Source: Spirochaetia bacterium
Lineage (GTDB): Bacteria > Spirochaetota > Spirochaetia > CAKZLE01
DNA: 64,000 bases
Assembly: GCA_963677595.1 (NCBI GenBank)
Contig: OY782041.1
Location: 2,560,001-2,624,000, forward strand
Direction of reading: 5' to 3'
The notes below the pieces were generated by a model. It was given only the letters and a program-made list of their open reading frames with translations, had not been told where the DNA came from and ran no database searches. Of the stretch, positions 33,231 to 58,178 are shown piece by piece. A program made the translations under genes and the position numbers. Positions within the stretch are counted from its first letter, which is position 1; every line of letters starts with the position of its first letter.

Positions 33231-33306
33231 AGAATCGCTCATTGACTCAATGTAATGTTTAAAAAAATTGACAAAAAGACTTTTAACGTTTAACATAATA
33301 GACATT

Positions 33307-33621
33307 ATGAAGAAGAAGATTACCCTGCTACCGAAAACAGAACGAATCCTCCAGCAACTGGGTGAGAATATCAGGCTTGCCAGATTGAGGAGGAAGATCT
33401 CTGTTGAGCTGCTGTCTGAACGTGCAGGTATCAGTAGGGCCACTCTCTGGTCGATCGAGAAGGGAAGTCCTTCAGTCAGCATGGGGGCTTATATCCAGGT
33501 CCTGGCAGTTTTGGGTCTCTCCTCAGATATGCTGAAAGTCGCTGAGGATGATGAGCTGGGAAGGAGACTGCAGGATGCAGGACTGAAGACCAGGATCAGG
33601 GCTCCAAAGAGAGGATCCTGA
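33307..33621 (+). CDS. XRE-family HTH antitoxin (HipB-like)
   Basis: LGENIRLARLRR..AGISRATL..IEKGSPSVSMGAY; immediately upstream of a hipA remnant. Confidence 0.85.
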   Translation: MKKKITLLPKTERILQQLGENIRLARLRRKISVELLSERAGISRATLWSIEKGSPSVSMGAYIQVLAVLGLSSDMLKVAEDDELGRRLQDAGLKTRIRAPKRGS

Positions 33622-33661
33622 TCATGGCTGAGAAAGTAGTATGACTGTAGTTGAGAAGTCA

Positions 33662-33840
33662 TAGATGCTATCCTATTCTTGACGGAGAATGGGAACCGGT
33701 GATCGTGTAATGATCTATTGTGATGGATGCTGGACTTTCAGACATACCTCAATGAGAAAGATACACTGACCGGTCATCGAAGACTACTTGGAGACTTCCC
33801 GGGGAATTCTCCCCGGGAATGATCTCAATAATAAAAATGA
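33662..33840 (+). ncRNA. Putative bridge/seek RNA of IS110 element 1
   Basis: Hairpins covary with the element 2 NCR; segments match its own target (TGAGAAAGA, GATCTATT) and donor (ACTACTT, AATAAA); ends approximate. Confidence 0.75.
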
Positions 33841-33909
33841 AGGGCATCTACGCACTTCCTGTCATAAAGCTTCCCAACTATCCGTTAATTTTATTTTGAG
33901 GAGGCTGCC

Positions 33910-35079
33910 ATGATAGACAGACCTTTACGATTGACGGCAACCAGGATCATCGGCTTGGATCTTTCCAAGAAGACTCTGGTTGGGTGTATGCTACTAGCAG
34001 AAGAAGGGTTCATGAAGAATCACTTCTTCAACGAGAAGATGAATGCTCAAGGACGTCAGCGACTCGCTGAACGGTTCAAAGCAGGAGATGCGATCTTCAT
34101 GGAGGGAGGGACCTCTTCCTTCAACCTCGCACGGTATCTGCTGAAGCACACCGAAGCAGACGTGTATGTACTCAACCCCATGAAACTGCATATCATCTTC
34201 GAGTCGATCTGCAAGTCAGATCGGCAAGATGCTGCAAAATTGGCTAAGTATGCACGGGATGCCCACCCGGAGAACTGGGTACTGGTTCCTATCCCGACTG
34301 AACAGGAATCTGCTGAGCGCTCAGTAGTCAAGCTTCACATCGCCTATTCACAGTATCGTACGAAGGTCATCAACAAGCTTCATGCGGTATTCACGGGAAT
34401 GGGGTTCCCTGACCTGAAGAAATCGGATCTGAAGGATCCTCGCAAGCGACGGGACTGGGTGGAGACCCTGCTCACCGAGGAGATAGCTCTATTCAGTGCA
34501 GGGCTCCTGCTCGAAGAGCTTGAATCATTGGAGTCGCAGATGGAACGTATTCATGAGAAGCTCAAGGAGATCATTCTCGCTCACCCACGAGAAGCTCTTT
34601 CCTGGCTCTCGATTCCTGGTATCGGAGACATCACGGCTGTAACGCTCATTGCCTTCCTCGGTAATGGGGACCGATTCTCTTCTGCTAACCAACTGAGGAA
34701 CTATATCGGTCTCATCCCGAAGAAGGATCAATCCGGGACGGTCGATAAGCATCTTGGGGTCTCTCGTCACGGGTGTATGCCGATCAGGAGGCACATCATG
34801 CAGGGAGCTTGGGGGATCAAGAGCTTTAGGAGAGATTGTTCTCTTACTCGGTACTGGCAGCGTCTTGAAAGCCGACGGAAGCTTGGTCAGAAAGCATCAG
34901 TTGCCATTGCTAATAAGATGCTCTCTATCGGATTCGCTCTGCTGAAGAACGGTGATATCTACCGGATGCCTGACGGGGAACAGTATCTGTTGAAGAAACT
35001 GCAATACTATAAACTTGAAGCTCTCATCGGAACCCGATCCTGCAAGATTAATTCCGATAAGAGCTCAATAACCAGCTAA
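33910..35079 (+). CDS. IS110-family DEDD recombinase
   Basis: GLDLSK, FMEGG, KSDRQDA (DEDD); SIPGIG; GLIPKKDQSG catalytic Ser motif. Confidence 0.95.
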   Translation: MIDRPLRLTATRIIGLDLSKKTLVGCMLLAEEGFMKNHFFNEKMNAQGRQRLAERFKAGDAIFMEGGTSSFNLARYLLKHTEADVYVLNPMKLHIIFESICKSDRQDAAKLAKYARDAHPENWVLVPIPTEQESAERSVVKLHIAYSQYRTKVINKLHAVFTGMGFPDLKKSDLKDPRKRRDWVETLLTEEIALFSAGLLLEELESLESQMERIHEKLKEIILAHPREALSWLSIPGIGDITAVTLIAFLGNGDRFSSANQLRNYIGLIPKKDQSGTVDKHLGVSRHGCMPIRRHIMQGAWGIKSFRRDCSLTRYWQRLESRRKLGQKASVAIANKMLSIGFALLKNGDIYRMPDGEQYLLKKLQYYKLEALIGTRSCKINSDKSSITS

Positions 35080-35589
35080 AGCCAATCTAACGGTTTTAGC
35101 CTATCACTAACCACCTCCCCACGCAAGTCCTTATTTTTAAGGTCTCGGAGAATTGTGTCTATTTGAATTGCCAAAACTTTCTTGTTTATACCTCTTGACA
35201 TCTACAGACAAATAAAGAGATCTATGTCTATGCAGATTGGGAAGGGATTTCAGGTCCTGAACTCATAGGGACTCTTACCGTCGACAGGACCAGGGGGAAG
35301 GACTTCTACGGTTTCTCATATGCCGATACCTGGCTGAAAAGCGAACATCAGGCGATCCTGTCTCGTTCTGGAAAAGCACAGAATCCCCGAAATGGAACAA
35401 TCCCTGTATGCATCAGCTTTCAAGGTTGAATTGACCTCATAGCTCTGTTTCTGGGATTAGGGATGATATAAAAAAACGGGATGGTGCACATCGTGTCGTT
35501 CAGGTAGTTGTTGATCCCCACGATCTTCTCAACACGCGGGGTAAGATATCCCTGTTCAAGGGCAGTCCCTGCCTCCGTGAAGAGGGGGG

Positions 35590-55231: not shown

Positions 55232-55297
55232 ATAGGGTCTGAAGAATTATAATGTCCACATAAGAGATTGATGCTTTCAGTCTCTTATTCTGGAAGG

Positions 55298-55490
55298 TTC
55301 GATGTTATTCTGGACTTGACGGAGTCCGGAAGCCGGTGGTCATGCGACTACGTTTGTGAAACACGTCTGTTGACGGTGATTTCTTTGAAGAAAATACACA
55401 GACGCCGGCCATCGAAGTATAAGGTGGGACTGATGGAGGATGGTGAGCATCCGGTCATATCCTCCATCTGAGCCCGATAATAAAAATGAA
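55298..55490 (+). ncRNA. Putative bridge/seek RNA of IS110 element 2
   Basis: Homologous structure to the element 1 NCR; TGAAGAAAA matches its target; TATAA and AATAAA match its donor; ends approximate. Confidence 0.7.
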
Positions 55491-55554
55491 AACAACGAAC
55501 TGCTAAAAAGCCTTCCGGATATCTTCCGCCAATCTATTTTTAGGAGGTGGCAAG

Positions 55555-56706
55555 ATGAATGGAAACTTGCCAGAAGGTTCTCGGATCATAGGGCTCGACC
55601 TATCCAAGAAATCGTTCACAGGATGTATCCTCTCCGGTACGGGTTACGTGAAGAAGCAGTACTTTTCGGGGAAGATGACGCAGGAAGACCAGGGGTGGAA
55701 ACTCATACGTGACTACATCCATGACGGAGACCTGGTACTCATGGAGGCAGGCACCTCATCGTTCACGTTAGCCCGGTACCTGCAGCGACGTTCGAAAGCG
55801 AGTAAGGTGATCGTCTTGAATCCCGGTACGCTGCGCATCATCTGGATGAGCCATCAGAAGAATGACAAAGCAGATTCGGCAAAGATTGCCTGTGTCGCCA
55901 GGGACATGCCTGAGGAGGCCTGGCCGGTAGTTCCTATACCTACCGATCAGGAGCAGGCAGAACGATCATGTATCACCCTGTATGTGTTCTTTAAACGGGA
56001 AGAGACGCAGTTGATCAACCGTCTGTATGCGCTGTATAACTCACTGGGCTATCCGGAGATCTCCCCAGCGATCCTCAAGGAGCAGCCGGAGGGACGGCAT
56101 GCGTTAGCCCGGAAGTTGTTGTCTGACTGCCCGACAGCCTTGGATGGGGCAGTCCTGCTGAATGAGCAGCTTGAGTTGACGCAGCATCATATTGAGGTGA
56201 TGATCGATAAACTGCGGAGCATCTGTCTGGCCCATCCGAAGCAGGCGCTCTCCTGGTTCTCGATACCGGGTATCGGCCTCATTAATGCAGCTACGTTACT
56301 AGCCTACATCGGAGATGGTTCACGATTCACCAAATCGTGCCAGCTGCTCAACTATGCAGGCCTCATCCCCAAGCAGGATCAAAGTGGTACAGTCGATAAG
56401 CATCTTGGGATCACCCATCGGGGCAATGCCTACATCCGCAGGAACATCGTCCAGGGAGCCTGGAGAGTCTCGAATATGAAGCCGGTTTGCCAGATTACCA
56501 AGTTCGCATATCATAAGAAAATGGCAGGAAAGAAGAAGCAGATAGTCGCTATAGCAGTCGCGAACAAGATGCTTCGAACGGGGTTGGCTATGCTGCATTC
56601 AGGAGAACTCTATTACCCCACGATCGAGGAGGGATACGCCAAGCTCGAAGCAAAGCTTCGATCGTACAAAGTACAGGCCCTTATGAATTCCATAGCAGAA
56701 AGGTAA
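55555..56706 (+). CDS. IS110-family DEDD recombinase
   Basis: GLDLSK, LMEAG, KNDKADS; SIPGIG; GLIPKQDQSG. Confidence 0.95.
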   Translation: MNGNLPEGSRIIGLDLSKKSFTGCILSGTGYVKKQYFSGKMTQEDQGWKLIRDYIHDGDLVLMEAGTSSFTLARYLQRRSKASKVIVLNPGTLRIIWMSHQKNDKADSAKIACVARDMPEEAWPVVPIPTDQEQAERSCITLYVFFKREETQLINRLYALYNSLGYPEISPAILKEQPEGRHALARKLLSDCPTALDGAVLLNEQLELTQHHIEVMIDKLRSICLAHPKQALSWFSIPGIGLINAATLLAYIGDGSRFTKSCQLLNYAGLIPKQDQSGTVDKHLGITHRGNAYIRRNIVQGAWRVSNMKPVCQITKFAYHKKMAGKKKQIVAIAVANKMLRTGLAMLHSGELYYPTIEEGYAKLEAKLRSYKVQALMNSIAER

Positions 56707-56713
56707 TTTCATA

Positions 56714-57947
56714 GGCTCTTTTCGTAAGTTTTAGTTATGGGCTATCGGCTGCAAGATCTTAGGAAATTCAAGATTTCTGACCTGCTTTGTCGTAGCCGTT
56801 TCCTTCCCCGGTACCATCAGAGATTTAAGAATGTCCACTTTTTCTGATAACCGTTTCGGTTTGTTCACTAACTTCCAAGCTTCCCACATAATATACAACT
56901 CAGCATTCTTCGTGGCAAAACTCGATCGGCTATGAGCTTTCTCTGCAATAATCGAGTGTAACGCATTCACCATCTGCAGATTGAACTGGCCATATCGCGA
57001 TTCCGTCTTTGAATCAAGCGCAACATGGGATAGTCCAGAATCCTGGGCAAACTTTATTCCGCCCTTGCTCTTATCGGTTACCAGAATCGCCTGAGTATTC
57101 AGCCGAGTGTCAAACGCATACCCCAAGCCCTCACTGCTGACCGTACCTCTCCCGATGGGTTTGCCAATCACATTGCGATCTTCATCTATCGCTGTAGCGA
57201 TGCAGACCTTATCCCTGCTCAACCCGCGTTTTTTGTCCTGGGAGCCACGCTGGTGAGGATGATCTCGGAATCCATACTTCTTATAGTCGGGGATCATGTC
57301 CGTATAGTCCTGTTCGATCCCTAAGTTTGCTACACTCTTCTTATTGCCCTTAAAGCTTGCTGGAAGATAGAATTCGTCTTCTTGGATGATCCCGGTTAGG
57401 ATTTTCCCCTCGACCGAATTCCCCACATGATTGAACAGCTTCATCCGCCATGCATGTGCTGTAGCTAGGGATATGTGGCACTTTTCAGACAAGATGGTTA
57501 ACGTATCATTACACAGCATGCCCTCGATGAAGGTATCCCAGGCTTGGTTTGAGGTTGCGCTGCCTTGCGATACCCGCCCTGTAGATACCCCAAAATATGA
57601 TCGGCACTCATTGCATCGATATCTTGGTTTCCCATATGCAGAACCGTTCTTCACCACATGAGTCGACCCACAGGTCGGACAACATATTGGTGTCGAACCT
57701 GCCTCCGGCTGCTTCCTGCCAGCTTCCAATGGAGAAACAGATTCAGTATTGTCAGGGGAAAGGCCATTTTCCTCTATCAAGGTATTCACGATTGTGATGA
57801 TGGCTTTTTTCTCTTCAACATCCTTCAGAGCATCCAGCATCTGCTGATAGATTTCCAATGCAATTTGTTCGTTACTTCCCATAGCTATAGTATAGCAGAT
57901 TTAAGGCCTGCTGTATACAAAAATCACTTTATCTTACGAAAAGAGCC
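56714..57947 (-). mobile_element. IS1595-family element nested in the right end of IS110 element 2
   Basis: Perfect 15-bp TIR GGCTCTTTTCGTAAG; 8-bp TSD ATTTCATA (56706-13, 57948-55). Confidence 0.95.
56731..57882 (-). CDS. IS1595-family transposase
   Basis: Zn ribbon CPTCGS..RYRCNEC, HTH, QEDEFY, VTDK. Confidence 0.92.
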   Translation of the reverse strand: MGSNEQIALEIYQQMLDALKDVEEKKAIITIVNTLIEENGLSPDNTESVSPLEAGRKQPEAGSTPICCPTCGSTHVVKNGSAYGKPRYRCNECRSYFGVSTGRVSQGSATSNQAWDTFIEGMLCNDTLTILSEKCHISLATAHAWRMKLFNHVGNSVEGKILTGIIQEDEFYLPASFKGNKKSVANLGIEQDYTDMIPDYKKYGFRDHPHQRGSQDKKRGLSRDKVCIATAIDEDRNVIGKPIGRGTVSSEGLGYAFDTRLNTQAILVTDKSKGGIKFAQDSGLSHVALDSKTESRYGQFNLQMVNALHSIIAEKAHSRSSFATKNAELYIMWEAWKLVNKPKRLSEKVDILKSLMVPGKETATTKQVRNLEFPKILQPIAHN

Positions 57948-58178
57948 ATTTCATAAGAGCCCCATAATTCAAAGTACCTCAGCGTTTCGCCTGTGTCTAT
58001 TCATAGGCTAGTATCATTATATGCAGATGTCAAGATTTAGATATGTTTAAAGTTTACTCTTGACTTATGTGGACAAATAAAAACATGAGAAAATATCTCG
58101 TCAGGGAATGGCAGGCGGTCCCAACCTACTGGACAACCGTGTCGTGGCGATTATGCTTACCTCAAGGGAGGATACCGC

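Follow-up and report, generated by a model that had tools for sequence, protein, structure and literature searches.

The interrupted locus and its element

The window, a 64,000-nt stretch of a Spirochaetia genome, contains an element of the IS110 family inserted in the first codons of a hipA-like gene. Upstream of the insertion is a gene encoding a HipB-like XRE HTH antitoxin (33268..33621, + strand; Pfam HTH_31, E 1e-8; TIGR03070 couple_hipB, E 1e-9, below the cut-off). The left target flank (33624..33633, +) holds the first codons of the interrupted gene, and its final 5 nt agree with the 3' target guide described below (5/5). The right target flank and the rest of the short hipA-like N-terminal frame lie beyond the element (35217..35429, +); the first 7 nt match the 5' target guide at 5/7 positions. 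The empty site restores a reading frame from the ATG at 33624, the relatives of which are hipA-like N-termini located downstream of a hipB-like gene. The toxin gene is also truncated, as the stretch similar to these relatives is about 48 residues long and a stop at 35429 ends the frame.

The element encodes an IS110-family recombinase of 389 aa (33910..35079, +). The protein contains the Pfam domains DEDD_Tnp_IS110 and Transposase_20 and scores 198 bits against NCBIfam NF033542 (cut-off 140). The catalytic residues D17, E65, D104, and D107, and S275-G276 in the motif GL-P----SG, are invariant in 30 aligned relatives (30 of at least 120 listed, counting the two window proteins). The best fold matches of a predicted model (pLDDT 88.6) are IS621 and ISCro4 (E 1e-14; TM 0.57-0.64 by query), although the recombinase is only 21-23% identical to IS621. 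The RuvC-like DEDD domain, the Tnp domain with a catalytic Ser-Gly, and the predicted IS621-like fold are features of the IS110 family. Among the matches listed, the close protein relatives (63-78%) come from Sphaerochaeta-type genomes and from metagenomes.

Five full genomic copies (c0, the window copy, to c4) fix the boundaries of the element; these copies are 96.5-99.9% identical, have common ends and different flanks, and carry AA at both junctions. The boundaries are confirmed by a contig of the public run X1, which may be the sample from which the window was assembled. This contig joins 33632 to 35214 and omits 1581 nt, representing the empty site; the depth at the joint is 21, compared to 25-28 for the filled junctions, and four letters fit either side. 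According to this joint, the element with a single core measures 1581 nt and the empty site is GCTGAGA-AA-GAGATC, as reconstructed in the preliminary description. The span given there (33634-35216) counted both core copies, AA at 33634..33635 and AA at 35215..35216 (both +; TT on the other strand). The empty-site contig and the restored frame reveal scarless insertion at a shared 2-nt core, with four letters ambiguous here. When c1, c2, or c3 is removed together with one core, frames of 227, 175, and 137 codons, respectively, are open across the site, so these copies probably interrupt genes as well.

A site near 2896262 of contig G000:C1 (minus strand) is empty in the assembly, yet is joined to the right end of the element in X1. 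Guides of c0 fit the left side of this site (4/5) and guides of c4 fit the right side (5/7). Empty and filled alleles are both present, and X1 has a junction where the assembly shows an empty site; the element has thus either moved in recent time or varies from strain to strain. Of three loose-end strings taken from X1, two had no match in the assembly. The genome also harbors c5, a 181-nt remnant of the RNA region (G000:C1:253785-253963) with a third guide set; this variant is present in run X4. The remnant is cut inside the donor hairpin with the target arm whole, its left end is decayed, and its guides fit no site above 6/12. It could act in trans.

The window holds a second element of the same layout, d1 (55245..58081, +; ORF 55555-56706), which is 45% identical. 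Its guides are at 55347, 55386, 55417, and 55478, and its repeat matches at 12/12 positions. The right end of d1 was predicted from the left repeat and then found beyond an ORF on the minus strand (56731-57882) that, from its motif, is presumably an IS1595-like transposase. The right flank of d1 fits its guide poorly.

A predicted bridge RNA with target and donor guides

The noncoding region upstream of the recombinase gene is 274 nt, compared to 135 nt at the other end. It likely contains a bridge RNA (33650..33875, +), predicted from a fold z-score of -4.8, covarying pairs, and an RNA-model match spanning 33650-33875. In the consensus fold, a basal stem (about 33656-33668 with 33844-33857) closes a multi-branch loop. 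Inside this loop are a 5' hairpin (33671-33694), a target arm with an internal loop (33697-33779), and a donor hairpin (33791-33826) flanked by unpaired linkers. The fold, from 11 close-clade sequences, has 63 pairs, with 95.5% of cells paired and 19 pairs changed on both sides. None of 500 shuffles reached 19 two-sided pairs and slid controls reached at most 7, where the fold is derived from the same sequences on which it is scored and kinship inflates the shuffle test. Folding and alignment of the noncoding region, as proposed in the preliminary description, thus recovered a conserved structure. No Rfam family matches the RNA region, the sole Rfam match being a chance snoRNA inside the ORF, and a linear promoter scan was uninformative (2 sites versus 1.8 expected).

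The four guide segments proposed earlier are all present, with GATCTATT at 33712, TGAGAAAGA at 33753, ACTACTT at 33783, and AATAAA at 33830, and the internal hairpin at 33796-33819 is perfect. When 33660-33860 was base-shuffled 20,000 times, the single-match rates were 0.066, 0.0016, 0.012, and 0.098, and the four matches never occurred together. The extent of two segments is revised. The right-guide segment, given as 33712-19, belongs to a 5' target guide of 7+2 nt (33711..33719, +) that covaries with the right flanks. The left-guide segment had been read as a 9/9 match to the target. The segment itself stands as a 3' target guide of 5+2+2 nt (33753..33761, +) that covaries with the left flanks, but a targeting role for its last two letters, GA, was rejected, as GA is identical in all 14 close-clade entries with this slot read, whatever the target. 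This constancy indicates that GA probably represents handshake letters instead of target guide. The first handshake letter equals the next base of the donor in 18 of the 20 entries with that arm read, the behavior expected of handshake guides.

The 5' donor guide (33782..33789, +) is complementary to the core and the left-end arm. The 3' donor guide (33829..33837, +) comprises the right-end arm and core, followed by two predicted handshake letters. Each guide pair had been described as flanking an internal hairpin; in the consensus fold, the donor guides lie in the multi-branch loop and not in a simple internal loop.

Covariation of target guides with insertion sites

Covariation between guides and targets, named in the preliminary description as the test that could overturn its reading, was observed both across relatives and within the genome. 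On the left, the 3' target guide matches 85/105 letters over 21 sites, compared to 58.7±3.7 when permuted (p 5e-5); with one site per guide, the count is 45 versus 28.4 over 12 units (p 5e-5). On the right, the 5' target guide matches 45/105 letters over 15 sites in a fixed register (35.2±4.7 permuted, p 0.03) and 71 at the best register within ±1 (51.2±3.7, p 5e-5). With one site per guide, the right-hand count is 51 versus 36.4 over 11 units (p 0.02 and 1e-4). These p-values overstate the case, since the guides are A-rich and the kin are not independent. Loci L036, L042, L043, L050, L008, and L048 were left out as duplicates, and L004, L044, L045, L051, L052, and L056 were left out because a needed end or flank is missing. 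Elements with AG or TG cores were scored apart, and the remnant c5, with its decayed left end, was left out. The guide polarity of IS621 was also tried for the segments and rejected, with matches at chance level (30/147 and 14/70).

Within the genome, c4 carries different letters in both target-guide slots. Guides of c0 score 10, 9, and 10 out of 12 on the sites of c0, c1, and c2, respectively, and 3 on the site of c4. Conversely, the c4 guides score 9 out of 12 on c4 and 2-4 on c0-c3. Programmability of the recombinase is suggested by this natural variation.

The fit is uneven. The right guide is loose, and in a fixed register 4 of 15 sites score 0/7 and need a shift of ±1. Poor right fits include L006 (3/7) and d1 (2/7, or 3/7 when shifted); on the d1 site, the c0 guides and the d1 guides score equally (7 versus 7 of 12). 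Two left junctions are without the AA core, GG in L015 and TA in L041. The right junctions of c3, L003, L035, L037, L041, and L047 have their best register shifted by -1 to +2 within A-runs, which suggests slippage or bulges at the core.

Donor guides, sub-terminal repeats, and the predicted circle junction

The left end contains a 7-nt donor arm (33636..33642, +) and the right end a 5-nt donor arm (35210..35214, +). Sub-terminal inverted repeats, reported in the preliminary description, are borne out. The left repeat (33640..33654, +) pairs with the right repeat (35198..35212, +) at 11/15 positions in c0, and at 8/9 for 33642-33650. The match is 11-14/15 in the seven clade A/B elements scored, and 13/13 in L040 and L047. 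The spacing between strict repeats in the circle is 12 nt, or 8-12 nt depending on where the repeat is taken to start.

A predicted promoter is formed when the ends are joined with one core: the -35 box TTGACA (35195..35200, +) is then 17 nt from a -10 box within the left-end donor arm (33637-33642). Joined in this way, 13 of 14 elements have a TTGAC-type -35, a 17-nt spacer, and a TANNNT -10, whereas ISHvo9 has none. No circle joint was found among the contigs of the four runs X1-X4; contigs drop rare forms.

The donor guides match the predicted circle junction. It is conceivable that, as for a seekRNA, only the target arm guides, with the ends read mainly by the protein through the long repeats and the donor matches secondary. 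The repeats keep their complementarity through compensatory changes, at 12-14/15 positions in L001, L040, L006, L047, and d1. The 3' donor guide is A/T-rich and nearly invariant in the close clade, so covariation is not seen there. The 5' donor guide is without core pairing in several relatives (AG, TG, GG) and has no clean match in ISLin1 and the G097 element, and short seekRNAs are described as sufficient for ISEc11 (PMC11187229). However, the 5' donor guide changes together with the left-end arm in four sub-groups, and the 3' donor guide tracks the right-end arm and core with 0 mismatches in each of ISLin1, the G097 element, and three haloarchaeal elements. Guidance by the target arm only is therefore improbable.

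Polarity of the site and a proposed mechanism

The preliminary description emphasized an AA core and a right-guide-first order. Both are seen, but they represent one feature and not two separate novelties. The IS621 design template reads LLLLLLLCC, then RRRRRCCHH (PMC11208160, supplement 7), and IS621 fixes T as the second core base and accepts a TT core (PMC11208158). The guides here, 7+2 followed by 5+2+2, reproduce this pattern when read from the other strand, on which the core is TT. Similarly, the AG cores of ISLin1 and the G097 element read CT when flipped. The flipped G097 donor begins with ATA and ends with TAT, which IS110 donors are described as carrying as a short repeat (PMC11208160), and the long repeat of the G097 element runs directly out of these letters. 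Since the flipped reading fits the IS621 template, core and guide order reduce to a single trait, the polarity of the site relative to the gene, and the complex need not differ in geometry from that of IS621.

The order and core do differ from those of IS621 in gene orientation, the protein is distant in sequence, and Siddiquee et al. suggest that the mechanics may differ between the two guide orders (PMC11187229). A complex with a strand arrangement unlike that of IS621, the strongest version of the earlier reading, could be required for these reasons. It seems very unlikely, given that guide lengths, handshake position, and second core T all map onto the IS621 template once flipped, as do the CT and ATA/TAT signatures of the relatives. 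Finally, the words are 6-9 nt, the guides A-rich, and several sites poor, but the proposal that the matches are chance, or a mere trace of the latest insertion site, in a leader without function, is scarcely tenable, as it is already contradicted by the covariation and permutation tests, the shuffles, the conserved fold, the switch of guides between c0 and c4, and the fit of one G097 guide set to many independent sites.

Covariation and fold thus support an RNA-guided recombinase of the IS110 family with upstream target and donor guides and the top-strand-pairing guide first, as originally described. Very probably, the element belongs to the ISLin1 clade of the IS110 family and its predicted bridge RNA guides a DEDD/serine recombinase to 14-bp sites in target and donor, flipped as in IS1111. 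On the model of IS621, ends joined as a circle with one AA core would create the -35/17/-10 promoter, from which RNA and gene would both be transcribed. Both target strands would be paired by the target arm, the 5' guide with the core and 7 nt to the right, and the 3' guide with 5 nt to the left and the core. The circle junction would be paired by the donor guides, within the multi-branch loop. Strand exchange at the core would be carried out by a tetramer via S275-DNA links, aided by the handshake letters. The right-hand register often shifts by one base in A-runs, and the guides drift, so that copies retarget. The cut-out step is uncertain, since some IS621 excision is described as possibly single-stranded and dependent on the donor loop only.

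Relatives and the distribution of the layout

In the protein tree, the query, ISLin1, and elements from genomes G097 and G299 form a clade with support of 100/99. Its sister, at 87/88, is a group of four core IS1111 rows, and the IS110-group rows and ISHvo9 lie apart. The tree comprises 31 rows, thinly sampled and without IS621, with a midpoint root, and the group labels (IS110 versus IS1111) of its named rows are in part our assumption. The RNA model matches 11 of 27 loci at E <= 0.1, all in the ISLin1 clade, and among these 27 loci has no match at ISHvo9-type, core IS1111, or IS110-group loci. The match is clear for the G097 element (E 4e-8) and weak for ISLin1 (E 0.016, 0.073). By protein, the clade includes the G299 element (L054), which gives no convincing match to the RNA model.

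Relatives outside the close clade also have guides that can be read against sites. The G097 left flanks are identical to the guide readings in 21/21 cases and the right flanks in 19/20. Genome G097 has 21 copies of this 36%-identical relative (L073-L093), all in the end of a repeat of roughly 100 bp. The repeat, a MITE-like target, has inverted ends and is found in both orientations. For ISLin1, one of two scored sites fits the guides, and L064 does not. At L063 (400-895 and 1950-2100), ISLin1 is in tandem, inside a short repeated unit that matches its guides. In three haloarchaeal ISHvo9-type elements (L066, L120, L121), which have a TG core, a two-arm RNA is clearly recognizable upstream and the guides track the sites. 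ISLin1, the G097 element, and the three haloarchaeal elements all have the same upstream layout with the top-strand guide first. The combination of features once considered unusual is therefore present but not unique, as it is common to the catalogued ISLin1 and ISHvo9.

A bolder proposal is that the ISLin1 clade, perhaps with the ISHvo9 type, constitutes a third bridge-recombinase architecture that keeps the missing step from IS110 to IS1111. In such an intermediate, the site would be flipped, the short ATA/TAT edge extended outward to form a long repeat, and the donor guides placed in a multi-branch loop, with the RNA still upstream; the target arm would slip by one base in A-runs, and differing guides would coexist in one genome. 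This proposal is tentative, and on the whole more doubtful than not.

The results permit a simple reading of the published guide-order puzzle of IS110 versus IS1111: one geometry of the complex, with the site oriented in either of two ways relative to the gene and the position of the RNA varying independently. Predicted guide RNAs and targets can be assigned to a spirochaete clade that includes ISLin1. The data point to natural reprogramming within a single genome, and the filled and empty alleles to recent movement. With a TT core and low identity (22%), the recombinase is a candidate for the bridge-editing toolbox. No new class of RNA-guided enzyme is added.

Comparison with known systems

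The element falls within the IS110 family, but by the defining lists belongs to neither the IS110 nor the IS1111 group. Like the IS110 group, it has a long left end holding the predicted RNA; unlike that group, it has neither a bottom-strand (left) guide in first position nor absent or very short sub-terminal repeats. As in IS1111, the segment matching the top strand lies 5' of the one matching the bottom strand, the reverse of the order in IS110, according to Siddiquee et al. (PMC11187229). The same source gives IS1111 repeats of 11-13 bp and 7+3 extensions (10 nt between repeats in the circle). The repeats of the query are of about this size and near perfect in relatives, but imperfect in c0, and the query is without the 7+3 extensions, the long downstream noncoding region, and the 330-350 aa protein in the IS1111 clade. 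The previously proposed misfit with the IS110/IS1111 split is therefore genuine, but its novelty is not, since the IS1111 order and upstream exceptions are already published. The exceptions in PMC11187229 include IS1111 elements with upstream noncoding regions, namely ISMtsp17 and ISHvo10, the latter with both regions. According to Durrant et al., the LE/RE split holds for the "vast majority" but not for every element (PMC11208160). A literature search, excluding figures and most subscription papers, revealed no description of guide RNAs of the ISLin1 clade, nor of the upstream, top-strand-first layout as such.

ISLin1 of Leptospira interrogans, listed with the IS110 family in the source data of PMC11187229, has the lowest E-value among the named plasmid matches (27-28% identity, E 1e-35). 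Besides its place in the same clade, it shares with the query a weakly matching homologous upstream RNA, the top-strand guide in first position, imperfect sub-terminal repeats, and the same predicted junction promoter. It differs in its core (AG, CT when flipped, versus AA, TT when flipped) and protein length (357 versus 389 aa). ISLin1 targets are repeat-associated, whereas query sites are dispersed and A-rich. ISHvo9 and its haloarchaeal relatives likewise have an upstream two-arm RNA with the top-strand guide first, and among the haloarchaeal elements guides follow sites in 3/3 and repeats match at 14/15 in two of three. The ISHvo9 type is unlike the query in its TG core, 10-nt spacing, 28% identity, separate position in the tree, and absence of an RNA-model match.

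IS621 and ISCro4 (PMC11208160, PMC11208158) share with the query the fold and the junction promoter (both predicted for the query), the DEDD and SG residues, an upstream RNA with the target arm before the donor arm, and guides of 7+2 and 5+2+2. The query differs from both in that its site has the opposite polarity with respect to the gene, its repeats are long, its donor guides are predicted to lie in a multi-branch loop, its identity is 21-23%, and it falls in a separate clade. ISPpu9 also has an upstream bridge RNA and, in gene orientation, an AG core, which hints at the same flipped polarity as the query; unlike the query, it belongs to the IS110 group and is without repeats (PMC12288879). 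The IS1111 group (ISEc11, ISKpn4, ISPa11, IS5075) resembles the query in its top-strand match first, sub-terminal repeats, GL-P----SG motif, and longer arm in the left end, as well as in the multi-loop donor guides reported for many IS1111 elements by Durrant et al. (PMC11208160). ISEc11 also inserts at TG*AA (PMC13604230, Table 1). In contrast to the IS1111 group, the query has its RNA upstream (274 versus 135 nt), a recombinase of 389 aa versus 330-350 aa, a position outside the core clade, and repeats that are 12 nt apart (8 when counted from the ATA/TAT edge) instead of 10.
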